Source: Escherichia coli (GTDB lineage: Bacteria; Pseudomonadota; Gammaproteobacteria; Enterobacterales; Enterobacteriaceae). Taken from it: a stretch of 64,000 nucleotides of DNA. Positions 46,079 through 64,000 of this stretch are shown piece after piece. The stretch lies in the NCBI RefSeq assembly GCF_045037415.1, contig NZ_CP173438.1, one strand, 5' to 3'. The translations under genes and the position numbers were made by a program. The notes below the pieces were generated by a model. It worked only from the letters and a program-made list of their open reading frames with translations, was not told where the DNA came from and ran no database searches. Numbering within the stretch: position 1 is the stretch's first letter; each line of letters opens with the position of its first letter.

Positions 46079-46186
46079 ATCACTGTTCCTTTAATTGGAG
46101 TTGGAAATAGATTGTAAGAAAACTATAACGCGTACGCAAAAAATATTATATCGTGTTAAGAGTGGTTACTACGCCACACAGCTTAA

Positions 46187-46212: not shown

Positions 46213-46331
46213 CCGAAAAACGGCGCAGTACGTTAAACGTGCTGGTGGTTGCGAATACCGGTCTTTCAGCTTGCTGGCTTTTCAGACAAGAGTTATTGGT
46301 ATGTCACGTTAACCAGAAAAGGGAAAAAGAC

Positions 46332-46529: not shown

Positions 46530-46679
46530 AGGCTTTTTTATTTGTGGTAATGGGCGGCTGGTGGGTGTTAGCGGCACCTGCCAGCCATCTGCTCATGCGT
46601 TGGGGTCACAAGCAAACCTCAGGCCCATCTGCTTTGCGCAAAAGCGGTATGAGCCTATCAGAGAAGTGCTTATTGATCT

Positions 46680-47420
46680 ATGGCTAATACTGTAAAAATA
46701 TCCAGTTGTGAGTTAATCAACGCCGACTGCCTGGAATTTATCCGGTCGTTACCCGAAAATTCTGTTGACCTGATAGTCACGGACCCGCCGTACTTTAAAG
46801 TGAAGCCTGAGGGCTGGGATAACCAGTGGAAGGGCGACGATGATTACCTGAAGTGGCTGGACCAGTGTCTGGCGCAGTTCTGGCGGGTGCTGAAACCTGC
46901 CGGAAGTCTTTACCTGTTCTGTGGTCATCGCCTGGCATCTGATATCGAAATCATGATGCGTGAACGCTTCAGTGTGCTGAACCATATTATCTGGGCGAAG
47001 CCGTCCGGACGCTGGAACGGATGCAACAAGGAAAGCCTGCGGGCGTATTTCCCCGCCACAGAGCGCATTCTGTTCGCGGAACATTATCAGGGGCCGTATC
47101 GTCCGAAAGATGCCGGGTATACGGCGAAGGGCAGTACGGCTGTGTCGGACAGGGCTTACATATTGCCAAAAAACTGCTTCCGTATATCCCTAATAACGCG
47201 GGGATCCTGCTGGTACCATGCTGTCGTGGTGGTTCGGCATTCACCCAGGGCACGGAGGGGACATTCAGCGAGTCCACGGGGGCCAGTCAGGATTCGGCTC
47301 GCTGGGGAGTGGGTAAGCCGTTATATCAGGATCTGCTTTTCCGCACGAAGGCAGCATTGCAGAAAAACCCGAAAAACGTTTTGCTGGCGATATGCTGGAT
47401 GCAGGGGGAATTCGATATGA
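46680..47420 (+). pseudogene. N6-adenine/N4-cytosine-type DNA methyltransferase, N-terminal fragment only (frame lost after about 140 codons)
   Basis: Motif IV TDPPYF and ...LNHIIWAKP... are present, but no motif I follows; the frame degenerates into low-complexity sequence while the overlapping frame becomes NanS-like. Confidence 0.45.
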
Positions 47421-48562
47421 CGAATGCCAGTTACGCCCAGCAGCCAGCAGCATTTCTTGCAATGGTACAGCAGTTCCGTGCTGACCTTGCCGGGCTGGCG
47501 GCGCAGTGTCACGGTGGAAGTCCGGCATCAGTCCCCTGGATTTGTGGCGACACGACATACGTGTGGAAACAAGAACACGGTACGCAATATGAAGTGGTAT
47601 ATGGTGCATATAAAGGTAAAGAATCCCAGCAGATTTATTTTGTTCCCTTTATGACCGATGGTAGCGGAGTTAATACACCGACAAACAACCCGTCAGAAGA
47701 TCCTGATATTGCCGGGTCTGGTTATTACGGTTCGGCATCCCGAACGAACAAAAACTGGGTATCATCAAATCGCCCGACGCATTTCAGCTCATGGGCGCGT
47801 CGTGGCATTATTCCCGATCGTATGGCAACTGCTATTCTGAACGTAGCCGGTCGCACCTTAGCCTTCATTAGTGGTAAGGCACCGGAAATCAAACCCTCGC
47901 CCGGCGGCGACACTCCATCGGGGCCGTCTGATGGTGACACATCCGTTCGTACAGTCTCCCTGCTGCCGACAGCCGGAGAGGCTGCTGCGCAGGGCTGGAC
48001 CATCACCGGCGGCAGTGTTGCGCTGGAAGATGGTGTGTTTAAGGTTACCAAGCAGAGCAATAAAACTTGGTCCCTGATGCATCCGGTGGATGACGCAGTC
48101 TCCCTGCTGACACGGGGTGGCAGACTGAGCTGTAAGTTTCGACTGTCAGGCGCACTGACCAACAACCAGTTCGGTCTGGGAATTTATCTGTGTACCGATG
48201 TAGCGTTACCTGACGTCGTGGCGATGACCGGGACTGGTAACCCGTTCCTGATGTCGTTCTTCACCCAGACCACAGACGGCAAACTGAATCTGATGCATCA
48301 CAGGAAAGCAGGAAACACAAAGTTGGGCGAGTTCGGGAATTACAGTAACGACTGGCAGACGCTGGAGCTGGTGTTCACCGCCGGCAGTGCCACGGTTACT
48401 CCGAAACTGAATGGAGTGGCTGGCCCGGCATTCCAGGTCATAAAAGACAGTCTGACACTGGGGCTGAATGCGCTGACGCTGACGGATATTACCAAAAATG
48501 CAGCGTATGGCGTTGAGATAGAAAGTCTGGTGCTGGAGATAAATGCACCAGCATCATCATAA
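47021..48562 (+). CDS. prophage NanS-like sialate O-acetylesterase (NanS-p type), apparently 5'-truncated
   Basis: Frame matches recalled YjhS/NanS from ...QYGCVGQGLHIAKKLLPYIPNNAGILLVPCCRGGSAFTQGTEGTFSE... onward, plus a C-terminal extension; the N-terminal GQSN-containing region was not seen. Confidence 0.55.
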   Translation: MQQGKPAGVFPRHRAHSVRGTLSGAVSSERCRVYGEGQYGCVGQGLHIAKKLLPYIPNNAGILLVPCCRGGSAFTQGTEGTFSESTGASQDSARWGVGKPLYQDLLFRTKAALQKNPKNVLLAICWMQGEFDMTNASYAQQPAAFLAMVQQFRADLAGLAAQCHGGSPASVPWICGDTTYVWKQEHGTQYEVVYGAYKGKESQQIYFVPFMTDGSGVNTPTNNPSEDPDIAGSGYYGSASRTNKNWVSSNRPTHFSSWARRGIIPDRMATAILNVAGRTLAFISGKAPEIKPSPGGDTPSGPSDGDTSVRTVSLLPTAGEAAAQGWTITGGSVALEDGVFKVTKQSNKTWSLMHPVDDAVSLLTRGGRLSCKFRLSGALTNNQFGLGIYLCTDVALPDVVAMTGTGNPFLMSFFTQTTDGKLNLMHHRKAGNTKLGEFGNYSNDWQTLELVFTAGSATVTPKLNGVAGPAFQVIKDSLTLGLNALTLTDITKNAAYGVEIESLVLEINAPASS

Positions 48563-48712
48563 AAAGTGAGCCAGTCAAATGGAAGGTATCGTTAAACTCA
48601 CCGGTAGTGTCAGTGGGTCGTCTGAGATGCCTGCATGAGTTATCAGAGCCATCAGTACTTAACTGGTGGCTTTTTTTATTGTTGTCAGCTTCCGGATAAC
48701 GGGAGACGGGGT

Positions 48713-48928
48713 ATGTACCAGATGGAAAAAATCACAACAGGTGTGTCATACACCACGTCAGCGGTGGGAACGGGCTACTGGTTCCTGCAGTTGCTGGACA
48801 GGGTTTCCCCGTCTCAGTGGGCGGCAATAGGCGTGCTGGGGAGTCTGCTGTTTGGGCTGCTGACATATCTGACTAACCTGTATTTCAAAATCAGAGAGGA
48901 CCGTCGTAAGGCTGCACGGGGAGAGTAA
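48713..48928 (+). CDS. S: holin, phage 21 S-like pinholin
   Basis: ORF 48635..48928; [71 protein letters not shown] resembles S21; tandem Met starts (MYQM) and a GGGAGACGGGG Shine-Dalgarno. Confidence 0.8.
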
Positions 48929-48932
48929 TTCA

Positions 48933-49283
48933 ATGACTCAAAACTATGAACTGATTGTGAAAGGGATCCGCAATTTTGAGAATAAAGTTACGGTAACTTT
49001 AGCGTTACGGGACAAAAAACGCTTTGACGGTGAAATTTTTGACCTGGACATCTCGCTGGACCGTGTTGAAGGTGCCGCGCTGGAGTTTTATGAGGCAGCA
49101 GCCAGAAGGAGCATCAGACAGGTCTTCCTGGATGTTGCTGCCGGGTTATGTGAAGGGGATGAGCAGTCGCCGGAAAAGCGCCCCGTAATTTTAGAGGCGC
49201 AGAATGTATGGATAACCTACAAAGGAAAGCTACCGGGAAGAATTACTGGTTCTCTGAAGACTCCTCCGGAATCACAACCTTAA
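48933..49283 (+). CDS. hypothetical protein inserted between holin and endolysin
   Basis: 116-aa ORF with no recognisable motifs. Confidence 0.4.
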   Translation: MTQNYELIVKGIRNFENKVTVTLALRDKKRFDGEIFDLDISLDRVEGAALEFYEAAARRSIRQVFLDVAAGLCEGDEQSPEKRPVILEAQNVWITYKGKLPGRITGSLKTPPESQP

Positions 49284-49346
49284 GTCACTGACCGGAACAG
49301 ATAAACCTGTCCGTGGGCAGAAACCGATAAATCCTGATAAATATCC

Positions 49347-49880
49347 ATGAACACCAAAATCAAATACGGCCTGTCGGCTGCCGTTCTGGCGCTGATTGCC
49401 GCTGGTGCGCCTGCGCCTGACATTCTCGACCAGTTTCTGGATGAAAAGGAAGGTAACCACACCACGGCATACCGTGATGGCGCGGGTATCTGGACCATCT
49501 GCCGCGGTGCCATCCTGGTGGATGGCAAACCTGTCGTTCCGGGCATGAAGTTGTCGAAGGAAAAATGCGACCGGGTTAACGCCATTGAGCGTGATAAGGC
49601 GCTGGCATGGGTGGAGAAAAACATCAAAGTGCCATTGACCGAACCCCAGAAAGCGGGGATCGCGTCATTCTGTCCGTACAACATTGGTCCCGGTAAGTGT
49701 TTCCCGTCGACGTTTTACAGACGAATTAATGCTGGCGATCGCAGGGGAGCATGTGAGGCGATTCGCTGGTGGATTAAGGACGGTGGCAGAGACTGCCGTA
49801 TTCGTTCAAATAACTGCTATGGACAGGTCTCACGGCGTGACCAGGAGAGCGCGCTGGCGTGCTGGGGAATTGACAAATAA
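49347..49880 (+). CDS. R: SAR endolysin (lysozyme, GH24-like) R
   Basis: 177-aa ORF; N-terminal weakly hydrophobic Gly/Ala-rich signal-arrest-release segment (YGLSAAVLALIAAGAPAP) followed by a lysozyme-like domain. Confidence 0.8.
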   Translation: MNTKIKYGLSAAVLALIAAGAPAPDILDQFLDEKEGNHTTAYRDGAGIWTICRGAILVDGKPVVPGMKLSKEKCDRVNAIERDKALAWVEKNIKVPLTEPQKAGIASFCPYNIGPGKCFPSTFYRRINAGDRRGACEAIRWWIKDGGRDCRIRSNNCYGQVSRRDQESALACWGIDK

Positions 49881-50039
49881 GCAGAATATTTTGTTGAAAA
49901 ATGACGTTGGCTAATACGGACGGATAACACGAAATCCTGAGAACTGGCAAAACCTAAGTGAATAAAAGTAAAAACCCCGTTTGTTGGCTGCAAGCGGGGT
50001 TTTGTGTTTCCTGACTCTGGAAAAGTCAAAGGAGAAAGT

Positions 50040-50177
50040 GTGTTTGATTTTAGCAAACTGATTCGGGAGATTCGAGTGATGGCTGAAAAATTATCCACCT
50101 GGAAGTTCATTCTTATCTGGCTGGTGTTTGTGATTATGGCCTCCGGTTATTTCATCGGTCAGATACGCTGGTGGTGA
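50040..50177 (+). CDS. possible small membrane protein between R and Rz
   Basis: GTG start after an AAAGGAGAAAG Shine-Dalgarno; product contains the hydrophobic stretch KFILIWLVFVIMASGYFIG; below the ORF-track size cutoff. Confidence 0.25.
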   Translation: MFDFSKLIREIRVMAEKLSTWKFILIWLVFVIMASGYFIGQIRWW

Positions 50178-50178
50178 A

Positions 50179-50646
50179 ATGAACCGCGTACTGTGCGTGG
50201 TCATCATTGCCCTGCTGGTGGCCTGTGGTGCGCTTAGTCTGGGGCTGAATCATTACCGTGATAACGCCATAACCTACAAAGAGCAGCGCGATAAAAAAGT
50301 CAGTGAGCTGGAGCTGGCAAATGCAACCATTACTGATATGCAGCAGCGCCAGCGTGATGTTGCTGCACTTGATGCCAGATACTCGAGGGAATTAGCCGAT
50401 GCGAGAGCTGAAAATGAAACTCTTCGCGCTGACGTTGCCGCTGGTCACCGCAGCCTGCGGATCAACGCCACCTGTCCAGGTCCCGTGCGTGAAGCCACCG
50501 GCACCGCCCGCGTGGATAATGCAACCGGCCCCCAACTGGCAGACACCGTTACACGGGATTATTTCACCCTCAGAGAGCGGCTGATGACGATGCAGAAGCA
50601 ACTGGAAGGGGCACAGGACTATATCCGCACTCAGTGCCTGAAATAA
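50179..50646 (+). CDS. Rz: i-spanin Rz
   Basis: 155-aa ORF MNRVLCVVIIALLVACGALSLGLNHYRDNAITYK... closely resembles lambda Rz. Confidence 0.82.
   Translation: MNRVLCVVIIALLVACGALSLGLNHYRDNAITYKEQRDKKVSELELANATITDMQQRQRDVAALDARYSRELADARAENETLRADVAAGHRSLRINATCPGPVREATGTARVDNATGPQLADTVTRDYFTLRERLMTMQKQLEGAQDYIRTQCLK
50414..50584 (+). CDS. Rz1: o-spanin Rz1 (lipoprotein) embedded in the +1 frame of Rz
   Basis: MKLFALTLPLVTAACGS...CVKPPAPPAWIMQPAPNWQTPLHGIISPSE closely resembles lambda Rz1, including the lipobox cysteine and proline-rich region. Confidence 0.72.
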   Translation: MKLFALTLPLVTAACGSTPPVQVPCVKPPAPPAWIMQPAPNWQTPLHGIISPSESG

Positions 50647-51269
50647 GTTTTGCTGATGCGCGGTATTGTCGCCGTATCCCCGCATTAACAGAGACCGCAG
50701 CCCGACAGGGAGACTCCTCTGCGCGAGTGTGCGGGGATAATCAAAAACGATACACACCGGGGTTTACCGCGTTAACGGAGCGCGGCGTTGTCCCCTCATA
50801 GTCGCCTGTCCGGTGCGATGGTGGAAGAAGCCGGATGTTTATCACTATTAATTGATGACACAGAAATGGATTCATTGAATTTCAGCACGTTTTTGTATTC
50901 GTGTTATTGAACATCTGTTTATTTTACTTTTAACATATTGATAATAAAAAGAGCTGTAAATCTTTAGATGAGTCGATTTTGTCCGGGGAAGTTCAAATGG
51001 ATTTTATGCTGACGGTTTCTGGTGTGGTTATCCTGTCCATTGCTTATACTGCAGATAAATATGGCTGCCATTTGTTATCACGTATTGGCGCTTATTGTTC
51101 GTTGATGCTGATTTTCTCGTCGCTTTTTTTTGAGTAAGTTATATTAATTATAACAAATAATTTTCTGTGTTATTTTTTCAGGCTATCCCGTCAGAGGGGA
51201 AGCCTGTACTGCCAGGGAGCGAATGGAAAACTGATGTGTCCGGTAACTGCGTGTTCTGTGAACACCATG

Positions 51270-51455
51270 TTACTTAATTATGTAATTCATACCCGAACTC
51301 TCTGTTGACAGCCTTCTTCTGCAGGCTTCAATAACCCACGCTGAAAAGTTTCCTGAACCTTTCAGATCAAGAGCGATGTTAATTTGTTCAATCATCTGGT
51401 TTGGAAATCGGATGTTGCGGGTTGTTGTTCTGCGCGTTCTGTTCTTTGATGACAT
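51270..51455 (-). CDS. small Arc/ribbon-helix-helix-like DNA-binding protein
   Basis: 61-aa ORF; ...NIRFPNQMIEQINIALDLKG..NFSAWVIEACRRRL resembles the RHH pattern; lies in the lambda-like right-end region. Confidence 0.4.
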   Translation of the reverse strand: MSSKNRTRRTTTRNIRFPNQMIEQINIALDLKGSGNFSAWVIEACRRRLSTESSGMNYIIK

Positions 51456-51661
51456 AATGTTTCCCCATATTCAGTGTTGCTGATTTGTATTATCAGAAGT
51501 TGCTTTTACGTTAATTTGACGCAGATCAATTAATACGATACCTGCGTCATAATTGATTATTTCTCGTGGTTTGATGGCGTACACACATGTTGTGATAAAC
51601 CTTATATAGATGATAATCATTATCATTTCGTGGGTCCTTTCCGGCGATCCGACCGGTTACG

Positions 51662-51673
51662 GGGCGGCGACCT
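51662..51673 (+). other. cosN cohesive-end site (lambda-type 12-nt gggcggcgacct)
   Basis: Exact lambda cosN 12-mer, flanked upstream by ...gggtcctttccggcgatccgaccggttacg and downstream by cgcgggttttcgctatttatgaaaattt, both recalled lambda right-end and left-end sequences. Confidence 0.75.
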
Positions 51674-51842
51674 CGCGGGTTTTCGCTATTTATGAAAATT
51701 TTTAGGGAAAAATCAGATCCGTTCTTCTTCTTTTTAACTGATTGATTATCAATAGAATTTTAAAAATATAAAAGGATCTGACAAAGGCTGTTTTTGTTAG
51801 AAAACGCCATTTTCAGATCCTTTCTGGTTCCCGGGGGAGTGT

Positions 51843-52391
51843 ATGAACGTCAATAAGAAAAAACTGGCCGATATTTTTGGCGTTGATGTCAGGACCATCA
51901 CCGCCTGGCAGAGTCAGGGGTTACCACTAGTTTCTGGTGGAGGGAAAGGGACTGAATCAGTTTTTGATACAACTGCTGCCATTCAGTGGTATGCGCAGAG
52001 GGAAGCTGATATTGAAAACGAAAAACTCCGTAAAGAGATCGAGGATTTGAGGGCTGCCAGCGAATCAGACCTTCAGCCCGGCACCATTGATTACGAACGT
52101 TACCGACTGACGAAGGCACAGGCCGATGCACAGGAGCTGAAAAATGCTCGTGAGGAAGGCCTTGTCCTCGAGACGGAGTTATTTACCTACATCTTTCAGC
52201 GAGTGGCACAGAATATATCAGGGATCCTTGTCCGTGTCCCTCAGACACTGCAGCGTAAATACCCTGATATATCACCCGTACATCTTGATGCTGTGAAAAC
52301 TGAAATCGCGAAAGCATCCGATGTGGCTTCTGAAGCCGGTGAGAATGTGCGCAGGTGGATTGATGATTTCAGACGAACTGAGGGCGGCTAA
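51843..52391 (+). CDS. nu1: terminase small subunit Nu1
   Basis: 182-aa [39 protein letters not shown]... closely resembles lambda Nu1. Confidence 0.88.
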
Positions 52392-54291
52392 TTCTGCAGG
52401 AGCGATAGCAACCGGCCTCCTTGCGCTAAAAATTCCTGTCCCTCTGACGACAGTTCAGTGGGCAGATCGACATTATTACCTTCCGAAAGAGTCATCTTAC
52501 ACCCCGGGGCGGTGGGAAACACTGCCGTTTCAGGTTGCCATCATGAACAGCATGGGGAATGACCGGATCCGCACTGTTAATCTGATTAAATCTGCCCGTG
52601 TTGGTTATACAAAGATGTTGCTGGGAGTGGAGGCTTATTTTATTGAGCATAAATCACGCAACAGCCTTCTTTTCCAGCCCACGGATTCTGCTGCTGAAGA
52701 TTTTATGAAATCTCATGTGGAACCCACGATCAGGGATGTGCCGGTTTTACTCGATCTTGCACCGTGGTTTGGGCGTAAACATCGTGATAATACCCTCACG
52801 CTGAAACGTTTTTCATCGGGCGTGGGCTTCTGGTGCCTGGGCGGGGCTGCCGCTAAAAACTACCGTGAAAAATCCGTGGACGTGGTCTGCTATGACGAAC
52901 TTTCCTCGTTCGAACCGGATGTCGAAAAAGAGGGTTCGCCAACCCTGCTTGGGGATAAACGTATTGAGGGCTCTGTATGGCCCAAATCCATTCGCGGCTC
53001 GACGCCTAAAATCAAAGGCACCTGCCAGATCGAAAAAGCGGCCAACGAGTCGGCGCATTTCATGCGTTTTTATGTGCCCTGCCCACACTGTGGGGAGGAG
53101 CAGTATCTGAAATTTGGCGATGAATCCACGCCTTTTGGCCTTAAATGGGAGAAGGACAGCCCCGAAAGCGTTTTCTACCTCTGTGAACATCATGGCTGCG
53201 TGATCCATCAGTCTGAGCTTGACCAGAGCAACGGGCGGTGGATCTGTGAAAACACGGGGATGTGGACCCGTGACGGTCTGACGTTTTTCAGCGCCGCGGA
53301 TAATGAAATTCCGCCGCCGCGCTCCATCACGTTCCATATCTGGACGGCGTACAGTCCGTTCACCACCTGGGTACAGATAGTCTATGACTGGCTGGATGCA
53401 CTGAAAGATCCCAACGGCCTGAAAACCTTTGTGAACACCACGCTGGGCGAGACCTGGGAAGAGGCCGTGGGCGAAAAACTCGATCACCAGGTACTGATGG
53501 ATAAGGTCGTGCATTACACGGCGGCGGTGCCAGCCCGGGTGGTTTATCTGACGGCGGGCATTGACTCGCAGCGAAACCGTTTTGAGATGTATGTCTGGGG
53601 ATGGGCACCGGGAGAGGAAGCTTTTCTGGTGGATAAAATCATCATTATGGGCCGTCCCGATGAGGAAGAGACGCTGTTACGTGTGGATGCGGCGATCAAC
53701 AAAAAATACTGCCATGCAGACGGAACCGAAATGACCATTTCCCGTGTCTGCTGGGACACCGGGGGGATCGATGGTGAAATTGTCTATCAGAGGTCAAAAA
53801 AACACGGTGTTTTCCGGGTGCTGCCGGTAAAAGGCGCATCTGTCTATGGCAAGCCGGTGATCACCATGCCGAAAACCCGCAATCAGCGGGGCGTGTATCT
53901 GTGTGAAGTGGGGACGGACACCGCAAAAGAAATTCTCTATGCCCGTATGAAAGCCGATCCCACGCCTGCGGATGAAGCCACGTCGTATGCCATCCGTTTT
54001 CCTGATGATCCGGAGATTTTTTCGCAGACAGAGGCGCAGCAACTGGTCGCGGAAGAGCTTGTGGAGAAGTGGGAAAAAGGAAAGATGCGTCTGCTGTGGG
54101 ATAACAAAAAGCGGCGTAACGAAGCGCTGGACTGCCTGGTGTATGCCTATGCGGCATTACGTGTGTCCGTGCAACGCTGGCAGCTTGATCTGGCTGTACT
54201 GGCAAAATCCCGGGAAGAAGAGACGACCCGGCCAACCCTTAAAGAACTGGCAGCGAAGCTGTCCGGAGGAGTGAATGGTTACAGTCGCTGA
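52363..54291 (+). CDS. A: terminase large subunit A
   Basis: ORF 52321..54291 resembles lambda gpA throughout ([12 protein letters not shown]..., [14 protein letters not shown]..., [11 protein letters not shown]...); start placed at MISDEL, overlapping the Nu1 3' end. Confidence 0.9.
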
Positions 54292-54481
54292 ACTACAGGC
54301 GCTGCGTCAGGCGCGCCTTGATTTATTAACCGGTAAACGGGTGGTGTCTGTCCAGAAAGATGGTCGCAGAATTGAATATACGGCGGCTTCTCTGGATGAG
54401 CTTAACCGGGCGATCAATGATGCGGAGTCGGTACTGGGGACAACCCGACGTCGCCGTCGTCCGCTGGGAGTGAGGTTATGA
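54275..54481 (+). CDS. W: head-tail joining protein W
   Basis: 68-aa ORF ...LLTGKRVVSVQKDGRRIEYTAASL... resembles lambda gpW. Confidence 0.8.
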   Translation: MVTVAELQALRQARLDLLTGKRVVSVQKDGRRIEYTAASLDELNRAINDAESVLGTTRRRRRPLGVRL

Positions 54482-56070
54482 AACGAACGCCTGTCCTGAT
54501 TGATGTGAACGGCGTTCCGCTTCGTGAGAGTCTCAGCTACAACGGGAGCGGCGCAGGATTTGGCGGGCAAATGGCGGAGTGGTTGCCACCGGCGCAGAGT
54601 GCCGATGCGGCCCTGCTACCCGCGTTGCGTCTGGGGAATGCCCGGGCAGATGATCTGGTGCGCAATAACGGAATAGCGGCTAATGCGGTGGCTCTGCATA
54701 AGGATCACATTGTCGGGCATATGTTTCTGATCAGCTACCGTCCGAACTGGCGCTGGCTGGGGATGCGGGAGACCGCAGCAAAAAGCTTTGTCGATGAGGT
54801 GGAGGCGGCCTGGTCGGAATACGCCGAAGGGATGTTTGGTGAGATCGACGTGGAAGGAAAACGCACGTTCACGGAATTTATCCGTGAAGGTGTGGGCGTT
54901 CATGCGTTTAACGGCGAAATCTTTGTGCAGCCGGTCTGGGATACGGAAACCACGCAGTTATTCCGTACGCGTTTTAAAGCCGTGAGTCCGAAACGGGTGG
55001 ACACGCCTGGACACGGTATGGGGAACCGTTTTCTGCGGGCCGGTGTGGAGGTCGATCGATATGGCCGTGCCGTCGCGTACCATATTTGTGAGGACGATTT
55101 TCCGTTCTCTGGTAGTGGACGATGGGAACGGATCCCGCGTGAACTTCCCACCGGGCGTCCGGCCATGCTGCATATTTTCGAGCCGGTGGAGGACGGGCAG
55201 ACCCGTGGGGCTAATCAGTTTTACAGCGTCATGGAACGGCTGAAGATGCTCGATTCCCTGCAGGCAACACAGCTTCAGTCGGCCATAGTGAAGGCGATGT
55301 ATGCAGCGACGATTGAAAGTGAACTTGATACCGAAAAGGCCTTTGAATATATCGCCGGTGCGCCGCAGGGGCAGAAGGATAATCCGCTTATTAATATTCT
55401 GGATAAGTTCTCCACCTGGTATGACACGAATCACGTGACGCTGGGCGGTGTCAAAATTCCGCACCTTTTCCCCGGTGATGATCTGAAACTTCAGACCGCG
55501 CAGGATTCAGACAATGGATTTTCAGCGCTTGAACAGGCGCTGCTGCGGTATATCGCCGCCGGTCTTGGCGTTTCCTACGAACAGTTGTCCCGTGATTACT
55601 CGAAGGTCAGTTATTCAAGTGCCCGCGCCTCCGCCAATGAGTCGTGGCGCTATTTTATGGGGCGGCGAAAATTTATTGCGTCCCGGCTGGCCACGCAGAT
55701 GTTTTCCTGCTGGCTGGAAGAGGCACTTCTTCGGGGGATTATTCGTCCGCCACGGGCACGTTTTGATTTTTATCAGGCGCGATCAGCCTGGTCACGGGCT
55801 GAGTGGATTGGAGCCGGAAGAATGGCCATTGACGGGCTCAAGGAGGTTCAGGAATCAGTGATGCGCATTGAGGCCGGACTGAGCACGTATGAGAAAGAGC
55901 TGGCGCTGATGGGCGAGGATTATCAGGACATTTTCCGCCAGCAGGTCAGGGAATCTGCAGAGCGGGAAAAAGCCGGACTCTCACGTCCGGTGTGGATAGC
56001 GCAGGCGTATCAGCAGCAGATAGCGGAGAGTCGCAGGCCGGAAGAGGAGACAACACCACGTGAGACGTAA
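54478..56070 (+). CDS. B: portal protein B
   Basis: 530-aa ORF resembling lambda gpB (ADDLVRNNG..., FEPVEDGQTRGAN.FYSVME, AIVKAMYAATIESELDT...). Confidence 0.9.
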   Translation: MKRTPVLIDVNGVPLRESLSYNGSGAGFGGQMAEWLPPAQSADAALLPALRLGNARADDLVRNNGIAANAVALHKDHIVGHMFLISYRPNWRWLGMRETAAKSFVDEVEAAWSEYAEGMFGEIDVEGKRTFTEFIREGVGVHAFNGEIFVQPVWDTETTQLFRTRFKAVSPKRVDTPGHGMGNRFLRAGVEVDRYGRAVAYHICEDDFPFSGSGRWERIPRELPTGRPAMLHIFEPVEDGQTRGANQFYSVMERLKMLDSLQATQLQSAIVKAMYAATIESELDTEKAFEYIAGAPQGQKDNPLINILDKFSTWYDTNHVTLGGVKIPHLFPGDDLKLQTAQDSDNGFSALEQALLRYIAAGLGVSYEQLSRDYSKVSYSSARASANESWRYFMGRRKFIASRLATQMFSCWLEEALLRGIIRPPRARFDFYQARSAWSRAEWIGAGRMAIDGLKEVQESVMRIEAGLSTYEKELALMGEDYQDIFRQQVRESAEREKAGLSRPVWIAQAYQQQIAESRRPEEETTPRET

Positions 56071-57565
56071 TCTTTCACACATTATTGCCGCAGCATTCAA
56101 TGAACCGCTGCTTCTGGAGCCCGCCTATGCGCGGGTTTTCTTTTGCGCGCTCGGGCGCGAGATGGGGGCAGCAAGTCTTTCGGTACCACAACAGCAGGTA
56201 CAGCTTGATGCTCCCGGAATGCTGGCTGAAACGGACGAGTACATGGCCGGAGGTAAACGACCGGCCCGTGTTTACCGGGTGGTGAACGGTATTGCGGTAC
56301 TGCCGGTGAGCGGCACGCTGGTGCACCGGCTGGGGGGGATGCGGCCATTTTCCGGAATGACTGGCTATGACGGCATTGTCGCCTGTCTTCAGCAGGCAAT
56401 GGCAGATAGCCAGGTGCGGGGCATACTGCTGGACATTGACAGTCCGGGCGGGCAGGCCGCCGGCGCGTTTGACTGCGCTGACATGATTTACCGCCTCCGT
56501 CAGCAGAAGCCGGTCTGGGCACTGTGCAATGACACGGCCTGTTCTGCAGCCATGCTGCTGGCGTCGGCCTGCTCCCGACGGCTGGTTACCCAGACATCCC
56601 GTATCGGCTCCATTGGCGTGATGATGAGCCATGTCAGCTATGCCGGTCATCTGGCGCAGGCCGGTGTGGATATCACGCTGATTTATGCCGGGGCGCACAA
56701 GGTGGATGGCAATCAGTTTGAAGCGTTGCCGGCAGAGGTTCGCCAGGATATGCAGCAGCGGATTGATGCGGCGCACCGGATGTTTGCCGAAAAAGTGGCG
56801 ATGTATACCGGGTTGTCTGTGGATGCGGTCACGGGAACAGAGGCCGCCGTTTTTGAAGGTCAGTCCGGCATTGAGGCCGGGCTGGCGGATGAATTAATCA
56901 ATGCGTCGGATGCCATCAGTGTGATGGCCACGGCGCTGAACAGTAATGTCAGAGGAGGCACTATGCCGCAATTAACTGCAACGGAAGCCGCCGTGCAGGA
57001 GAACCAGCGAGTGATGGGGATCCTGACATGCCAGGAAGCGAAAGGACGTGAACAGCTTGCCACGATGCTGGCAGGGCAACAGGGCATGAGCGTTGAACAG
57101 GCCCGGGCGATTCTGGCCGCGGCGGCACCGCAGCAGCCGGTGGCATCCGCGCAGAGTGAAGCCGATCGCATTATGGCGTGTGAAGAAGCGAACGGTCGTG
57201 AACAACTGGCAGTAACGCTGGCGGCGATGCCGGAGATGACGGTGGAAAAAGCCCGCCCGATCCTGGCTGCTTCACCGCAGGCGAATGCCGGACCATCACT
57301 CCGTGATCAGATCATGGCCCTGGATGAGGCAAAAGGGGCTGAGGCGCAGGCTGAACAGCTGGCTGCCTGCCCGGGAATGACCGTGGAGAGCGCCCGGGCT
57401 GTGCTGGCTGCGGGATCAGGTAAGGCAGAACCGGTCTCTGCATCCACAACCGCCCTGTTTGAACATTTCATGGCGAACCATTCACCGGCTGCGGTCCAGG
57501 GGGGCGTGTCACAGGCGTCAGAAGACGGTGATGCGGACGTGAAAATGCTCATGGCCATGCCATGA
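56060..57565 (+). CDS. C: head maturation protease C (S49 family) with nested scaffold (Nu3-like) C-terminal region containing tandem repeats
   Basis: 501-aa ORF; N-terminal S49/ClpP-like protease region; C-terminal three roughly 38-aa tandem repeats (I[ML]xxEEAxGREQLAxxLAxxxxMTVExARxILAA). Confidence 0.82.
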   Translation: MRRNLSHIIAAAFNEPLLLEPAYARVFFCALGREMGAASLSVPQQQVQLDAPGMLAETDEYMAGGKRPARVYRVVNGIAVLPVSGTLVHRLGGMRPFSGMTGYDGIVACLQQAMADSQVRGILLDIDSPGGQAAGAFDCADMIYRLRQQKPVWALCNDTACSAAMLLASACSRRLVTQTSRIGSIGVMMSHVSYAGHLAQAGVDITLIYAGAHKVDGNQFEALPAEVRQDMQQRIDAAHRMFAEKVAMYTGLSVDAVTGTEAAVFEGQSGIEAGLADELINASDAISVMATALNSNVRGGTMPQLTATEAAVQENQRVMGILTCQEAKGREQLATMLAGQQGMSVEQARAILAAAAPQQPVASAQSEADRIMACEEANGREQLAVTLAAMPEMTVEKARPILAASPQANAGPSLRDQIMALDEAKGAEAQAEQLAACPGMTVESARAVLAAGSGKAEPVSASTTALFEHFMANHSPAAVQGGVSQASEDGDADVKMLMAMP

Positions 57566-57601
57566 AGTCAGTGCTGAACATCAATACGAGGTTTTAACAA
57601 T

Positions 57602-57949
57602 ATGGTGACGAAAACCATCACTGAACAGCGTGCGGAAGTACGTATTTTTGCCGGTAATGATCCGGCTCACACCGCCACAGGCAGCAGCGGGATTTCCTCG
57701 GCAACACCGGCACTGACACCCCTGATGCTGGATGGGGCCACCGGGAAACTGGTGGTCTGGGACGGACAGAAAGCCGGTAGTGCGGTTGGCATACTGGTAC
57801 TGCCGCTTGAAGGCACAGAGGCGGTGCTGACCTATTACAAGTCGGGGACCTTTGCGACGGAGGCAATCCGCTGGCCTGAAAGTGTGGATGAACACAAAAA
57901 GGCCAACGCCTTTACCGGCAGTGCCCTGAGTCACGCGGCGCTGCCGTAA
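57602..57949 (+). CDS. D: head decoration protein D
   Basis: 115-aa ORF ...NDPAHTATGSSG...TPLMLD...KLVVWDG...AVGIL...YKSGTF... resembles lambda gpD. Confidence 0.85.
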   Translation: MVTKTITEQRAEVRIFAGNDPAHTATGSSGISSATPALTPLMLDGATGKLVVWDGQKAGSAVGILVLPLEGTEAVLTYYKSGTFATEAIRWPESVDEHKKANAFTGSALSHAALP

Positions 57950-58006
57950 CACGTTATCAGGCCACCGCGTTGGCCTGACTGATTTCTTAATGAAAGGAAC
58001 TGATTT

Positions 58007-59035
58007 ATGGGATTGTTTACGACCCGCCAGTTACTCGGTTATACCGAACAAAAAGTTAAATTCCGTGCGCTGTTTCTGGAGCTGTTTTTCCGCCGTACGG
58101 TGAATTTCCACACCGAAGAGGTGATGCTGGACAAAATTACCGGAAAAACGCCGGTGGCGGCCTATGTCTCCCCGATCGTTGAAGGAAAAGTGCTTCGCCA
58201 TCGCGGTGGTGAAACCCGCGTGTTACGTCCGGGCTACGTCAAGCCCAAACACGAATTTAATTACCAGCAGGCGGTTGAGCGCCTTCCTGGTGAAGATCCG
58301 GCTCAGCTGAACGACCCGGCCTACCGTCGTCTGCGTATCATTACCGATAACCTCAAACAGGAAGAGCACGCCATTGTCCAGGTGGAAGAAATGCAGGCGG
58401 TGAATGCCGTGCTGTATGGCAAATACACCATGGAAGGGGAACAGTTTGACACGGTCGAGGTGGATTTCGGACGCTCTGAAGGAAATAACATTGAGCAGGC
58501 CGACGGTAAAAAATGGTCTGAGCAGGACCGTGATACGTTTGATCCGACGCATGATATTGACCTTTACTGCGATCAGGCCAGCGGTCTTGTAAATATTGCC
58601 ATTATGGACGGTACGGTCTGGCGTCTGCTGAATGGCTTTAAGCTGTTCCGCGAAAAACTGGATACCCGTCGCGGCTCAAATTCACAACTCGAAACGGCAG
58701 TGAAAGACCTGGGAGCGGTGGTGTCTTTCAAAGGGTATTACGGTGATCTGGCCATTGTGGTGGCGAAAACGTCTTATGTGGCAGACGACGGTACCGAAAA
58801 ACGTTATCTGCCGGTGGGCACACTGGTCCTGGGGAATACGGCAGCAGAGGGCATTCGTTGCTATGGTGCCATTCAGGATGCGCAGGCGTTGTCCGAAGGT
58901 GTGGTGGCCTCTTCCCGTTATCCGAAACACTGGCTGACTGTGGGCGATCCGGCCCGTGAATTCACCATGACGCAGTCCGCACCGCTGATGGTGCTGCCGG
59001 ATCCGGATGAGTTTGTGGTGGTGCAGGTGAAATAA
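58007..59035 (+). CDS. E: major capsid protein E
   Basis: 342-aa ORF resembling lambda gpE (YVSPIV.G.V.R.RGG, PGYVKPKHE, TRRGSNS.LETAVKDLG, TTGDPAREFTM.QSAPLM). Confidence 0.9.
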   Translation: MGLFTTRQLLGYTEQKVKFRALFLELFFRRTVNFHTEEVMLDKITGKTPVAAYVSPIVEGKVLRHRGGETRVLRPGYVKPKHEFNYQQAVERLPGEDPAQLNDPAYRRLRIITDNLKQEEHAIVQVEEMQAVNAVLYGKYTMEGEQFDTVEVDFGRSEGNNIEQADGKKWSEQDRDTFDPTHDIDLYCDQASGLVNIAIMDGTVWRLLNGFKLFREKLDTRRGSNSQLETAVKDLGAVVSFKGYYGDLAIVVAKTSYVADDGTEKRYLPVGTLVLGNTAAEGIRCYGAIQDAQALSEGVVASSRYPKHWLTVGDPAREFTMTQSAPLMVLPDPDEFVVVQVK

Positions 59036-59086
59036 TCCGTGAGCGGGGGCGAAATGCCCCCGTGTCTTTTTTCACAGGAGGCTGAG

Positions 59087-59470
59087 ATGGCAACAAAAGA
59101 AGAAAATCTGAATCGTCTTCGTCAACTGGCTGGCCTGCTGGGGCGCGAGGCGGATATGTCGGGGAGTGCTGCGGATATTGCGCAACGTGTGTCTGAGTGG
59201 GAAGAGGAGCTTGCTGTTTCCCCGGAGGGCATTATGCACTCTGATGAGAGCGGGGCTGATCAAAATCACACAGACGATGGTGAGCAGTTGAACAACACGG
59301 ATGCTCCGGATGATGTTAAAGCCGTCCGGGTACGGAAGTGCCTGCAAGTAATGGGGTATTGCCCGGAGACAGGTCGTCCCGTTGAGCTGGCGTTACGGGG
59401 TATGCGTGTTCTGGTGCCATCATCACTGGCAACGGCCATGATACAGCACGGAACGGCTGAATATGCGTGA
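59087..59470 (+). CDS. DNA-packaging protein FI-like
   Basis: ORF 59039..59470; start placed at MATKEENLNRL... behind an AGGAGG Shine-Dalgarno; positional equivalent of lambda FI with weak similarity. Confidence 0.5.
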   Translation: MATKEENLNRLRQLAGLLGREADMSGSAADIAQRVSEWEEELAVSPEGIMHSDESGADQNHTDDGEQLNNTDAPDDVKAVRVRKCLQVMGYCPETGRPVELALRGMRVLVPSSLATAMIQHGTAEYA

Positions 59471-59816
59471 TTTTCAGAATGCCTTTGATGCTGCCCTCGC
59501 CGGGGTAGACAGTACGATCGTTGAAGTGATGGGACTCTGTGCGCAGTTCACCTCGGGGGCACAGTGTGGCAGCGAAGTTCAGGGGGTTTTTGACGATCCG
59601 GAGTCGCTGGGGGTTGCCGGTGGCGGGGTCCGTATTGAAGGAAGCTGCCCGTCATTATTTGTGCGGACGGATACGGTTCGTGCCGTGCGGCGTGGTGACA
59701 CGCTGACCATTAATGGTGAGACATTCTGGGTGGATCGTGTTTCTCCGGATGACGGGGGCAGCTGTTATCTCTGGCTCAACCGTGGGCAACCACCCGCAGT
59801 TAACCGGCGACGATAA
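59463..59816 (+). CDS. head-tail connector protein FII
   Basis: 117-aa ORF whose C-terminal half (GVFDDPE...VRIEGS.PSLFVRTD.VR..RRGDTLTI....FWVDRVSPDDGGSC.LWL.RG.PPAVNRRR) matches recalled lambda FII. Confidence 0.85.
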   Translation: MRDFQNAFDAALAGVDSTIVEVMGLCAQFTSGAQCGSEVQGVFDDPESLGVAGGGVRIEGSCPSLFVRTDTVRAVRRGDTLTINGETFWVDRVSPDDGGSCYLWLNRGQPPAVNRRR

Positions 59817-59830
59817 ACGCAGGGTGAATT

Positions 59831-60406
59831 ATGGCGATAAAAGGGCTTGATCAGGCGATTGACAATCTGAGCCGGGTTCGTAAAAACGCCATTCCGGCTG
59901 CTTCTGCAATGACCATTAACCGCGTGGCCATAACGGCGATTAATCAGTCTTCGTCACAGGTTGCCCGGGAAACCAGGGTGAGACGGAAACTGGTAAAGGA
60001 ACGGTCCAGACTGAAACGGGCGACGGTCAGAAATCCGAATGCCAGAATTATCGTTAACCGCGGTGATCTCCCTGTGATTAAGCTGGGGATCAGAATGCTG
60101 GGGCGTCGTCCGAACAGCATACTCAAAGCCGGTCAGCATCGTTATCAGCGGGCATTTATCCAGCGATTAAATAATGGGCGCTGGCATGTTATGCAACGTC
60201 TTCCCCAGGCCAGATATGAGGAGGGCAATGACGACAAGGGAAGGAAAAAGCGTAATCGCCTTCCCATTCAGGTGGTGAAAATCCCGATGGCGGCCCCACT
60301 GAAACAGGCATTTGATGAGAATGTTGACCGTATCCGGCGTGAACGCCTGCCTAAAGAACTGGCATACGCGCTGAAACAACAACTGAGGATTGCGATAAAA
60401 CGATGA
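59831..60406 (+). CDS. Z: tail completion protein Z
   Basis: 191-aa ORF in the lambda gpZ position and of matching length. Confidence 0.75.
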   Translation: MAIKGLDQAIDNLSRVRKNAIPAASAMTINRVAITAINQSSSQVARETRVRRKLVKERSRLKRATVRNPNARIIVNRGDLPVIKLGIRMLGRRPNSILKAGQHRYQRAFIQRLNNGRWHVMQRLPQARYEEGNDDKGRKKRNRLPIQVVKIPMAAPLKQAFDENVDRIRRERLPKELAYALKQQLRIAIKR

Positions 60407-60798
60407 AACACACTGACATTCGTGCCGCAGTGCTGGATGCACTCGAGCAGCATGAACACGGGGCGACGCTGTTTGATGGTCGCCCCGTTGTTTTTGACGA
60501 AGAGGATTTTCCTGCGATCGCGGTTTATCTGACGGATGCAGAGTATACCGGTGAAGAGCTGGATGCAGATACCTGGCGGGCCACGCTGCATATTGAGGTG
60601 TTTTTACCGGCACAGGTACCGGATTCAGAGCTTGATCAGTGGATGGAAAGCCGGATTTACCCGGCGATGACCGCGATCCCGGCACTGGCAGGACTGATTA
60701 CCACGATGGTTACGCAGGGCTATGAGTATCGTCGTGATGACGATATGGCGTTATGGAGTTCTGCAGATCTGACTTATTCCATTACATACGAGATGTGA
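60403..60798 (+). CDS. U: tail terminator protein U
   Basis: 131-aa ORF in the lambda gpU position and of matching length. Confidence 0.8.
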
Positions 60799-60805
60799 GG
60801 ACGAT

Positions 60806-61558
60806 ATGGCAACACCAAATCCCCTTGAGCCGGTAAAAGGTGCCGGTACCACTCTGTGGGTTTACAACGGCAAGGGTGATGCTTATGCAAACCCGTTGTC
60901 AGACGATGACTGGCAGCGACTGGCTAAGGTGAAGGATCTGACGCCGGGCGAGATGACGGCAGAATCCTACGATGATAACTACCTGGATGATGAAGACGCG
61001 GACTGGACCGCGACCGGGCAGGGGCAGAAATCTGCAGGTGATACCAGTTTTACGCTGGCCTGGAAACCGGGAGAGGAAGGCCAGAAAGGGCTTATAGGCT
61101 GGTTTGAAAGCGGCGATGTCCGGGCCTATAAAATCCGTTTTCCGAATGGCACGGTGGATGTGTTTCGTGGCTGGGTCAGCAGTATCGGTAAGGCCGTGAC
61201 GGCGAAAGAAGTGATCACCCGCACGGTGAAAGTCACTAACGTGGGTAAACCTTCTGTAGCGGAAGAACGCAGCAAAATTACGCCGGTCAGTGCGATTAAG
61301 GTGACGCCGACATCCGGTACGGTGGCAAAAGGGAAAACAACCACCCTGACGGTTTCTTTTGAGCCGGAAAGTGCAACCGACAAGACGTTCAGAGCGGTTT
61401 CCGCCGATCCGTCGAAAGCCACCATTAGTGTGAAAGATATGACAATTACGGTAAACGGCGTGGCGACAGGTAAGGTGCAGATCCCTGTGGTGAGCGGAAA
61501 TGGTCAGTTCGCCGCAGTGGCTGAAGTCACCGTTACTGAAGCGGGCGCTGCAGGGTAA
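60806..61558 (+). CDS. V: major tail tube protein V
   Basis: 250-aa ORF closely resembling lambda gpV ([71 protein letters not shown]...). Confidence 0.9.
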
Positions 61559-61571
61559 ACGGAGGTAATAC

Positions 61572-62003
61572 ATGTTTCTGAAAACAGAACAATTTGAATA
61601 TAACGGTGTGTCTGTCACGCTTTCCGAATTGTCTGCGCTGCAGCGTATCGAGCATCTTGCCCTCCTGAAACGGCGTGCAGAACAGGCAGAATCCTGCGGC
61701 AACCTGCAGGTAAGCGTGGAAGATCTCGTCAGAACCGGCGCGTTTCTGGTGGCGATGTCCCTGTGGCATAACCATCCACAGAAAACGCAGTCACCGTCAA
61801 TGAATGAGGCCGTGATGAAGATAGAGCAGGAAGTGCTCACCACCTGGCCTGCCGATGCCATTGCCCGGGCGGAAGACGTGGTGTTGTGCCTGTCCGGGAT
61901 GATCGAAGCTGTTCGTCCGGATACTGATATTACTGAAGTGGCGAAAAATAACACGCTGACTGATGATGATTTTTCTGCGGGAAAGTCTTCGACGGCGAGC
62001 TGA
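61572..62003 (+). CDS. G: tail assembly chaperone G
   Basis: 143-aa ORF MFLKTEQFEYNGVSVTLSELSALQRIEHLAL... resembles lambda gpG. Confidence 0.85.
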   Translation: MFLKTEQFEYNGVSVTLSELSALQRIEHLALLKRRAEQAESCGNLQVSVEDLVRTGAFLVAMSLWHNHPQKTQSPSMNEAVMKIEQEVLTTWPADAIARAEDVVLCLSGMIEAVRPDTDITEVAKNNTLTDDDFSAGKSSTAS

Positions 62004-62443
62004 ACTTTGCCCTCAGACTGGCGCGTGAGATGGGGAGACCCGACTGGCGCGCCATGCTTGCCGGGATGACATCCACCGAATATGCCGACTGGCACCGTTT
62101 TTACCGCACGCATTATTTTCAGGATACCCAGCTGGATATGCATTTTTCCGGGCTGACGTACGCTGTACTCAGCCTGTTTTTTTGCGATCCGGATATGCAT
62201 CCCTCTGATTTCAGTCTGCTTGTCCCCCGGCATGAGGAAGAGCAGGTGGAGAGGCCGGATGAGGACAAAATGCTGATGCAGAAAGCGGCAGGACTTGCCG
62301 GAGGCGTCCGGTTCGGTGGGGACGGAGGGCGCGATATTTTATCGTCTGCGGATGTGGCGGATGTCATGGTGGATGATGCCGCATTAATGATGGCTTCAGC
62401 GGGGATTCCGGGAGGTGTGAGATATGTCCCAGCCGGTTGGTGA
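61572..62443 (+). CDS. tail assembly chaperone G-T fusion made by programmed -1 ribosomal frameshift
   Basis: Slippery heptamer G GGA AAG at 61979-61985 in the G frame; the -1 frame ORF 62030..62443 encodes a gpT-like sequence ending just inside the start of H. Confidence 0.7.
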
Positions 62444-64000
62444 TCTTGTTATTGACCTGAGTCTGGATGCTGTCCGTTTCGATGAGCAGATGAGCCGGGT
62501 AAGGCGTCATTTTTCAGGTCTGGATACCGACGCCAGAAAAACCGCCAGTGCTGTTGAACAGGGCCTGAGCCGCCAGGCGCTGGCTGCACAAAAAGCCGGG
62601 ATTTCCGTCGGGCAGTATAAAGCGGCCATGCGAACCCTGCCCGCACAGTTTACGGATATCGCCACGCAGCTTGCAGGTGGTCAGAATCCCTGGCTGATCC
62701 TGCTGCAACAGGGCGGTCAGGTGAAGGACTCCTTCGGCGGGATGATCCCCATGTTCAGGGGGCTTGCCGGTGCGATCACCCTGCCGATGGTCGGGGTCAC
62801 CTCGCTGGCGGTGGCGACAGGTGCGCTGGTGTACGCCTGGTACCAGGGAGATTCCACGCTTTCAGCGTTTAATAAAACCCTGGTTCTTTCCGGTAATCAG
62901 TCCGGACTGACTGCCGATCGTATGCTGACTCTCTCAAGAGCCGGGCAGGCAGCAGGGCTGACGTTTAACCAGGCGAGAGAGTCACTGGCAGCCCTGGTGA
63001 ATGCCGGTGTGCGTGGTGGTGAACAGTTTGATGCCATCAACCAGAGTGTCGCGCGTTTTGCGTCTGCATCCGGTGTGGAGGTGGATAAAGTCGCTGAAGC
63101 CTTCGGGAAGCTGACCACTGACCCGACGTCGGGACTGATGGCGATGGCGCGCCAGTTCCGTAACGTGACGGCAGAGCAGATTGCGTATGTTGCACAGCTG
63201 CAGCGTTCCGGAGACGAGGCCGGGGCATTGCAGGCGGCGAACGATATCGCCACGAAAGGCTTTGATGAGCAGACCCGTCGCCTGAAAGAAAACATGGGAA
63301 CACTGGAGACCTGGGCGGATAAAACAGGGAAGGCATTCAAATCGATGTGGGATGCCATTCTGGATATCGGTCGTCCGGAATCCTCAGCGGATATGCTCGC
63401 CAGTGCGCAGAAGGCATTTGATGAGGCGGATAAAAAATGGCAGTGGTACCAGAGCCGGAGCCAGCGCCGCGGTAAAACCTCCTCTTTCCGGGCCAACCTT
63501 CAGGGCGCATGGGATGACCGGGAAAATGCCCGTCTGGGTCTGGCAGCGGCAACGCTGCAGTCGGATATGGAAAAAGCCGGTGAACTGGCGGCAAGGGACA
63601 GGGCTGAGCGTGAGTCGTCACAGCTGAAGTATACCGGAGAGGCGCAGAAGGCGTATGAGCGCCTGCTGACGCCACTGGAGAAATATACCGCCCGGCAGGA
63701 AGAGCTGAATAAGGCCCTGAAAGACGGGAAAATCCTGCAGGCGGATTACAACACGCTGATGGCGTCGGCAAAAAAGGATTATGAGTCGACGCAGAAAAAG
63801 CCGTCCGGTGTGAAGGTGTCTGCCGGTGAGCGCCAGGAAGACCAGGCGCATGCAGCCCTGCTGGCGCTTGAAACCGAGCTCAGGACGCTGGAAAAACACA
63901 GCGGTGTGAATGAGAAAATCAGCCAGCAGCGCCGGGATTTATGGGAAGCGGAAAATCAGTATGTGGTCCTGAAAGAGGCCGCCACGAAACGGCAGTTATC
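62424..64000 (+). CDS. H: tail tape measure protein H (5' portion; continues beyond the window)
   Basis: ATG at 62424 opens a frame reading MSQPVGDLVIDLSLDAVRFDEQMSRVRRHF...AGISVGQYKAAMRTLPAQFTD... that resembles lambda gpH and stays open to the window end. Confidence 0.88.
   Translation, partial: MSQPVGDLVIDLSLDAVRFDEQMSRVRRHFSGLDTDARKTASAVEQGLSRQALAAQKAGISVGQYKAAMRTLPAQFTDIATQLAGGQNPWLILLQQGGQVKDSFGGMIPMFRGLAGAITLPMVGVTSLAVATGALVYAWYQGDSTLSAFNKTLVLSGNQSGLTADRMLTLSRAGQAAGLTFNQARESLAALVNAGVRGGEQFDAINQSVARFASASGVEVDKVAEAFGKLTTDPTSGLMAMARQFRNVTAEQIAYVAQLQRSGDEAGALQAANDIATKGFDEQTRRLKENMGTLETWADKTGKAFKSMWDAILDIGRPESSADMLASAQKAFDEADKKWQWYQSRSQRRGKTSSFRANLQGAWDDRENARLGLAAATLQSDMEKAGELAARDRAERESSQLKYTGEAQKAYERLLTPLEKYTARQEELNKALKDGKILQADYNTLMASAKKDYESTQKKPSGVKVSAGERQEDQAHAALLALETELRTLEKHSGVNEKISQQRRDLWEAENQYVVLKEAATKRQL

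Follow-up and report, generated by a model that had tools for sequence, protein, structure and literature searches.

The 3′ end of a lambda-like gene G in an Escherichia coli prophage raises the question of how the tail assembly gene T that follows it is expressed, either as a gene of its own or as an extension of G that is reached by a programmed −1 frameshift. The locus lies close to the end of a stretch of 64,000 nucleotides from the E. coli contig NZ_CP173438.1 (assembly GCF_045037415.1), which is referred to here as the window and supplies the coordinates given below. A first-pass annotation of the window had pointed to a slippery heptamer, in frame near the 3′ end of G and conserved as in lambda, from which the −1 frame would open directly into a T-like open reading frame. 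The evidence assembled here makes it highly probable that the site is indeed the programmed −1 frameshift of the G/GT pair of tail assembly chaperones in a lambda-like E. coli prophage. It is an instance of the already known lambda-type signal and leaves the understanding of the mechanism unchanged. The lambda G/G-T frameshift has reportedly been known since 1993 (Levin, Hendrix and Casjens) and its conservation since 2004 (Xu, Hendrix and Duda), and further accounts by the latter authors are said to date from 2013 and 2014.

Gene G (61572–62003, plus strand) contains 143 codons for the zero-frame product, the tail assembly chaperone gpG (the name also used by RefSeq), and extends from ATG 61572 to TGA 62001–62003. 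Its predicted Shine-Dalgarno sequence (GGAGG, 61561–61565, plus strand) is located 6 nt upstream of the ATG. Reading directly from the window sequence, GGGAAAG is found at 61979–61985 on the plus strand, 15 nt before the stop codon of G, which bears out the earlier placement of an in-frame heptamer near the end of the gene. Since position 61980 is a codon start in the G frame, the heptamer is parsed as G GGA AAG, with GGA (61980–61982) and AAG (61983–61985) forming the complete codons 137 and 138 (Gly137-Lys138) and the G at 61979 contributing the third base of the preceding GCG codon. This corresponds to the X XXY YYZ phase, and the site is the sole in-phase canonical heptamer of the whole G gene. 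No Shine-Dalgarno-like element is present in the window sequence upstream of the heptamer.

The reading frames around the heptamer leave little room for a productive shift elsewhere. Three consecutive stops, TGA TGA TGA (61961–61969, plus strand), which are read in the G frame as the Asp-Asp-Asp codons GAT GAT GAT, block the −1 frame up to 9 nt before the heptamer, and the frame is open from 61970. The G frame and the −1 (T) frame are both open over the 34 nt from 61970 to 62003 (plus strand), the only stretch in which a −1 shift gives a fusion, and the heptamer is located in the middle of this overlap. The −1 frame reads ...FFCGKVFDGELNFALRLAREMGRPDW... and is free of stop codons to TGA 62441–62443. 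Beyond the slip site, it remains open for 152 codons, compared to only 22 codons for the +1 frame. The frame relationship was also computed (62030 mod 3 = 2; G frame = 0), and the open reading frame downstream is in the −1 frame relative to G, as had been claimed.

The occurrence of the seven letters alone carries no information. The bare heptamer is present 10 times on the two strands of the window, compared to 7.6 ± 3.1 times in shuffled sequences, so that an enrichment of the heptamer per se was rejected and only its phase and position are informative. In-phase X_XXA_AAG sequences were found at 3 of 17,341 codon positions in the other long open reading frames of the window, a rate at which about 0.0016 would be expected among the nine in-phase positions of the 34-nt overlap. 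Such sequences are located in otsB (G_GGA_AAG, 810–816, plus strand), in otsA (A_AAA_AAG, 1261–1267, plus strand) and in the gene of a prophage LexA-family repressor (G_GGA_AAG, 35319–35325, minus strand), in the last case 35 codons short of the end of the repressor. As candidate shift sites all three were judged to be chance occurrences, because their −1 frames close within 6–13 codons (13 in otsB, 6 in otsA and 8 in the repressor), compared to 152 codons at G.

T-frame coding after the shift (61985–62443, plus strand) comprises 152 codons and a stop, with base 61985 being read twice. The shifted reading is GGG AAA GTC TTC ..., and residues 1–138 of G joined to the 152 additional residues give a predicted gpGT of 290 residues, which contains ...SAGKVFDGEL... 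at the junction (junction peptide ...DDDFSAGKVFDGE...). The two parts of this predicted fusion match the expected families. G matches Pfam family PF06894 (E 5e-51) and the NCBIfam equivalog TIGR01674, phage_lambda_G (166 bits, cutoff 74), and the −1 product matches Pfam family PF06223 and the NCBIfam equivalog TIGR01715, phage_lam_T (212 bits, cutoff 77), over residues 5–114. The TIGR01715 match therefore begins at residue 5 of the T frame, 11 residues before the Met that ATG 62030 encodes. In addition, phrog_32165, a family of annotated fused GT proteins whose profile of 290 positions has the same length as the predicted fusion, matches G with positions 1–142 and the T part with positions 140–290. 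A BLASTP comparison of the predicted fusion with lambda gpGT, which was assembled from NC_001416 in the same way, gave a collinear alignment with 71% identity (E 3e-144) that is continuous across the junction. The identities that the first-pass annotation had given to the two open reading frames are thus supported by both the family matches and the alignment. A search of the PDB with the fusion revealed no sequence relative with a solved structure. The C-terminal part of T (62270–62443) contains two copies of the motif LMxxAxG(I/L)xGGVR(Y/F)G in lambda-type T proteins, including that of the window, and the T proteins of phi80, cdtI and Providencia phages contain one copy.

The gene order around the site is that of lambda, V-G-T-H, with G and T between the genes for the tail tube and the tape measure proteins. 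Gene V (60806–61558, plus strand) encodes the tail tube protein (PF16461, E 2e-69) with a C-terminal Ig-like domain (PF02368). Gene H (62424–64000, plus strand) encodes the tape measure protein, as indicated by PF06791 (E 1e-69) and by RefSeq, and runs off the end of the window. The ATG of H at 62424 overlaps the end of T by 20 nt, and its Shine-Dalgarno sequence (GGAGG, 62411–62415) is embedded in the T codons for GGVRY. A scan for promoters and terminators between 60700 and 62700 returned none on the plus strand. A 444-residue open reading frame (60899–62233, minus strand), which is unannotated in RefSeq, lies on the strand opposite V, G and the beginning of T; it was judged almost certainly spurious as a gene, since lambda and phi80 do not conserve it and have short fragments in its place.

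The closest well-studied system is phage lambda itself, in which the G/GT frameshift uses GGGAAAG and the zero frame is kept in ~96% of cases (PMC3296357). Tail assembly depends critically on the resulting G:GT ratio of 30:1; H, the tape measure protein, is bound by the G part and V, the major tail protein, by the T part, and neither of the two chaperones is found in the virion (PMC5009743). In E. coli, shifts occur very readily on G_GGA_AAG as well as on the minimal A_AAG (PMC5009743), and the single tRNA-Lys (mnm5s2U34) is the key player in the slippage; its hypomodification raises GT (PMC5009743, PMC3296357, PMC7618472). At the level of sequence, the following defining features of lambda G/GT are found at the present locus: the position of the genes, the −1 overlap, the in-phase slip site, the homology of G and T and the conservation of the site.

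The similarity between the two sites is closest at the heptamer. A DNA alignment showed that the 15 bases TTTCTGCGGGAAAGT, which include the heptamer, are identical in lambda; G GGA AAG and its flanks (TTTCTGC...T) are unchanged, and the phase and the 15-nt distance to the G stop are equal, so that the site is conserved as in lambda, in agreement with what had been proposed. By comparison, the ~60 nt immediately upstream of TTTCTGCGGGAAAGT, which encode the acidic tail of G, are heavily diverged from lambda and contain two indels. The proteins are 72% identical in G and 86% identical over the first 80 residues of T. Indels, located in the acidic linker ahead of the slip site and in the C-terminal region of T, account for the differences in length (143 residues here versus 140 for G; 290 versus 279 for GT). 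The overlap is also shorter, with 34 nt here, where the −1 frame opens 9 nt before the heptamer, versus 64 nt in lambda. Finally, the codon that follows the slip is GTC here and GTG in lambda; the GTG that serves as the T start in the lambda annotation is therefore absent from the window.

Conservation of the site was analyzed in two sets of relatives. A first scan of viral contigs with the G protein returned 80 loci, all of which are 97–100% identical and thus informative only for retention of the site; the exact slip site is kept in all 80. Since these close contigs are nearly identical, the scan was repeated with a diverse GT alignment, and the resulting distant set consists of 93 relatives (13 phage records with 28–99% identity in G, and 80 diverse viral contigs). 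In all 93 of them, the frame of T is −1 with respect to that of G, with overlaps of 16–85 nt. The T motif ARE[FM][GR]R[PA]D served as an anchor for 40 distinct sequences, and all 40 have a lysine slip site of the form A_AAR exactly 36 nt upstream of the motif.

The composition of the slip site varies among these relatives. G_GGA_AAG is found in the window, lambda, ev099 and some Stx2a phages, A_AAA_AAG in VT1-Sakai and other Stx phages, and G_GAA_AAG in phi80, mEp043, cdtI, one Providencia phage and 65 of the 80 diverse contigs; the remaining sites are A_GAA_AAG, G_GGA_AAA, G_GCA_AAA and G_GAA_AAA. What is invariant in the family is therefore not the canonical X_XXY_YYZ heptamer, which is missing in most relatives, but a lysine codon A_AAR that is in phase and lies at a constant distance from the T domain, a rule that could aid the automated detection of such frameshifts. 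Phages phi80, N15-like, cdtI and mEp460, as well as many enterobacterial prophages, carry homologous G and T genes that fall into the Pfam and NCBIfam families named above, and their T is likewise read in the −1 frame. In this group the slip site is also located 36 nt upstream of ARE[FM]GRPD, with AAG or AAA as the A-site lysine codon. In contrast to the canonical two-tRNA heptamer of the window, the sites of this group (G_GAA_AAG, A_GAA_AAG, G_GGA_AAA or G_GCA_AAA) allow perfect re-pairing by the A-site tRNA-Lys only, and the G stop in this group often follows the slip site by just 0–3 nt, compared to 15 nt in the window.

The pattern of sequence variation is also informative about the frame in use. 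Codon-position entropies in the T frame, counted from the slip site and including the overlap with G, are 0.94, 0.82 and 1.31 for positions 1, 2 and 3 respectively. Third positions thus vary most in the T frame, which indicates that the −1 reading is under selection ahead of every potential start of T. The anatomy of the site, the homology of its genes and its conservation are demonstrated by these comparisons. G diverges much faster than T; in the comparison with Stx1 phages, identity is 46% for G and 86% for the first 80 residues of T. In comparisons of the window with Stx phages and with phi80, the change in similarity between the G and T parts falls near the slip site. This step suggests either a mosaic junction or different constraints on the two parts, with G binding H and T binding V.

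If the locus behaves as lambda does, ribosomes would start at ATG 61572, and most would stop at TGA 62001 to release gpG of 143 residues. When GGA and AAG occupy the P and A sites, respectively, a small share of the ribosomes would slip back by one base, and the two tRNAs would re-pair on GGG and AAA. The shifted ribosomes would then read the −1 frame from GTC 61985 to TGA 62441 and produce the 290-residue gpGT, with no T protein being made independently. By analogy with lambda, about 4% of ribosomes would be expected to shift, for a G:GT ratio of ~30:1; the G part would bind the tape measure protein H, the T part would recruit the tail tube protein V, and neither would end up in the virion. 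Slippage at this locus, its efficiency and the roles of the two proteins are in this way all inferred from lambda.

RefSeq presents the locus differently, with 'phage tail assembly protein T' entered as an independent CDS (62030–62443, 137 residues). In this description T is a separate gene that starts at ATG 62030, a codon that is also shown in the list of open reading frames, and the heptamer would be irrelevant. However, the ATG is not preceded by a spaced Shine-Dalgarno sequence, with just a GAG abutting it, and Phe takes the place of its Met in phi80, cdtI, PSTCR8lys and the majority of the 40 distinct relatives. Upstream of the ATG, the 15 codons read in the T frame are conserved as protein and are covered by both TIGR01715 and phrog_32165. 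Independent initiation of T is therefore unlikely on these three grounds, and the third-position variability, which tracks the T frame from the slip site on, also argues against it. Moreover, different records annotate the start of T at codons that are not homologous: an internal ATG in RefSeq, a GTG overlapping the heptamer in lambda, and later ATGs in phi80, VT1-Sakai and mEp043. Accounts of lambda mention the T region solely within the frameshift product gpGT (PMC5009743, PMC3296357). A stand-alone T gene is thus highly improbable, and ATG 62030 is best read as an internal Met codon, residue 16 of the predicted T part, rather than a demonstrated start. The claim that the −1 frame opens directly into the open reading frame at 62030–62443 holds as far as the frame is concerned; its start does not, since the conserved T-family residues upstream of the ATG, and the Phe found in place of its Met in most relatives, place the beginning of T coding at the slip site (61985).

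A fusion of G and T could in principle also arise during transcription, by an RNA polymerase that adds or drops a base in a run of A. Transcriptional slippage gives an equivalent two-product output in some bacterial and phage genes (PMC5009743), and the A_AAA_AAG variants of the Stx phages contain six consecutive A. Polymerase slippage is supported by homopolymer runs of ~7–9 nt. The site in the window has just three A and three G in a row, which makes slippage of this type unlikely here, and the family conserves the codon phase of the A_AAR lysine codon rather than the length of the run. In addition, lambda GT frameshifting responds to the modification of U34 in tRNA-Lys, as expected for a ribosomal mechanism (PMC3296357). 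We therefore consider a transcriptional origin of the fusion to be scarcely credible. A different concern is that the signal is intact but a relic, in a defective prophage where the G-T frameshift would have no current role in the strain. In strain THO-003, whose complete genome is the closest one, this prophage has a tail-tip gene J marked as 'frameshifted' and several further genes that are partial pseudogenes; with J so annotated, the prophage may be defective and the site may now be unused. On the other hand, the reading frames of V, G, T and H are intact, and the 'frameshifted' call for J, which lies outside the window, could be an assembly error. The G-T region is also 99.3% identical to that of PhiR12_1, _2, _4 and _5, which were deposited as complete phage genomes with K-12 or C hosts, and many E. 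coli genomes and viral contigs carry this module in identical or almost identical form, which is unlike decay. A relic is accordingly an unlikely, though not negligible, explanation, and defectiveness of the prophage bears on the current use of the signal, not on its identity.

The sequence downstream of the heptamer was also analyzed for a structure that could stimulate the frameshift. An RNA fold is predicted at 61993–62063 (plus strand), in which an outer stem of 8 bp (61993–62000/62056–62063) that starts 7 nt after the heptamer encloses a GC-rich hairpin at 62019–62054 (62019–62034/62039–62054). The 100 nt past the heptamer have a minimum free energy of −41.4 kcal/mol (z −3.65 relative to shuffled sequences), compared to a z of −1.55 for lambda. 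Among 13 relatives, standard pairs are formed in 89.5% of pair cells, and one outer-stem pair changes from G-C to A-U between the lambda and phi80 groups. For 40 distinct diverse relatives, pairing drops to 73.5%, and the counts of pairs and pair types in these 40 sequences do not exceed those of shuffles (reached by 484 and 467 of 500). Individual sequences of the lambda, Stx and phi80 clades have z values from −1.6 to −4.6, whereas values are near 0 in most other clades, including most of those in which the G stop comes 0–3 nt after the slip site. A search of Rfam identified no frameshift element, with matches at chance level only (E ≥ 0.17). Two generalizations were rejected. A stimulatory RNA structure shared by the whole family is unsupported outside the lambda, Stx and phi80 clades and, with 13 and then 40 sequences, is inseparable from coding constraint. 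An association between an adjacent stop codon and the lack of structure is confounded by clade and contradicted by Kp4865-4, which has its stop 3 nt after the site and a z of −3.1.

The paired segments of the predicted fold encode the conserved peptide (G/S)EL...LAREMGRPDWRAMLAG, and its Ala-Arg...Arg-Ala codons (GCGCG...CGCGC) are self-complementary by nature. The fold could also be a by-product of this peptide and E. coli codon usage. The fold is thus regarded as an uncertain and unproven possibility that is limited to certain clades. That the frameshift in the lambda/Stx/phi80 branch, including this prophage, is tuned by the outer stem and the GC-rich hairpin appears doubtful. In the other branches, where the G stop mostly comes 0–3 nt after a weaker G_GAA_AAG, no structure of this kind is seen; under such tuning, the same chaperone ratio would be set by differing mixes of slip-site strength, stop proximity and RNA structure. 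A useful comparison is the gamma/tau frameshift of E. coli dnaX, which uses A AAA AAG with an upstream Shine-Dalgarno-like element and a downstream stem-loop and therefore shares a downstream hairpin, here a predicted one, with the window. The dnaX shift reaches ~50% and requires both stimulators, compared to ~4% for lambda-type GT. The window differs from dnaX in having no upstream Shine-Dalgarno-like element and in its fold, which has neither covariation support in the family nor an Rfam match. Like the window, dnaX makes a −1 shift on an X_XXA_AAG heptamer that is decoded by the single tRNA-Lys of E. coli (PMC5009743).

These results affect how the locus should be annotated. G and T have separate CDS entries in RefSeq and in most phage records, and a ribosomal-slippage join is used in none of the records inspected; what they call T begins at an arbitrary internal codon, and the fusion has been missed by gene callers. 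In a corrected annotation, the predicted 290-residue GT fusion would replace the stand-alone T of 137 residues. With the slip site recognized, the V-G-T-H block is also confirmed as a complete lambda-type module for tail-shaft assembly.

The module belongs to a prophage that extends beyond the window. Positions 44000–64000 are 100% identical to E. coli chromosomes such as that of strain THO-003 (NZ_AP022525.1), and a few SNPs and a single 1-nt indel separate the first 44 kb from the THO-003 sequence. According to the THO-003 annotation, the lambda-like prophage begins with an integrase gene beside yecN and a DUF72 gene (~28.2 kb) and continues past the end of the window in the tape measure gene. 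Its late region has the lambda order, namely terminase, portal, protease, decoration protein, major capsid, FI, FII, Z, U, V, G, T and H. SNPs relative to THO-003 are found at 28832, in the integrase gene, and at 47562. The 1-nt indel is within 36000–38000, and upstream of it the coordinates of the THO-003 segment equal those of the window plus 1.

Several other features of the window and of the THO-003 prophage were observed. In the chromosomal part, the gap between tar and cheR (~10955–11106) contains only a short, frameshifted remnant of a gene for a Tar ligand-binding domain. This interval is the position that tap occupies in K-12, and the chemoreceptor gene at this position appears to have been lost in the lineage of the window. 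Within the prophage, a DUF262-domain gene is paired with a gene for a HEPN-like nuclease of the MAE_28990/MAE_18760 family (~44229–46078, minus strand). The pair is directly downstream of a DNA cytosine methyltransferase gene, which itself follows the gene for antiterminator Q, and resembles an accessory cassette of the defence type. It is followed by a truncated DNA methyltransferase and DUF6645 pseudogenes (~46680–48562). At the other end of the prophage, beyond the window in NZ_AP022525.1, a reverse-transcriptase gene and a SLATT-domain gene are located after the tail fibre genes. In the NZ_AP022525.1 segment numbered from window position ~44000, the annotated T is at 18030–18443, gene J is at 23697–27169 and the reverse-transcriptase and SLATT genes are at 32617–34516; the latter two could form a retron-like or other defence cassette.
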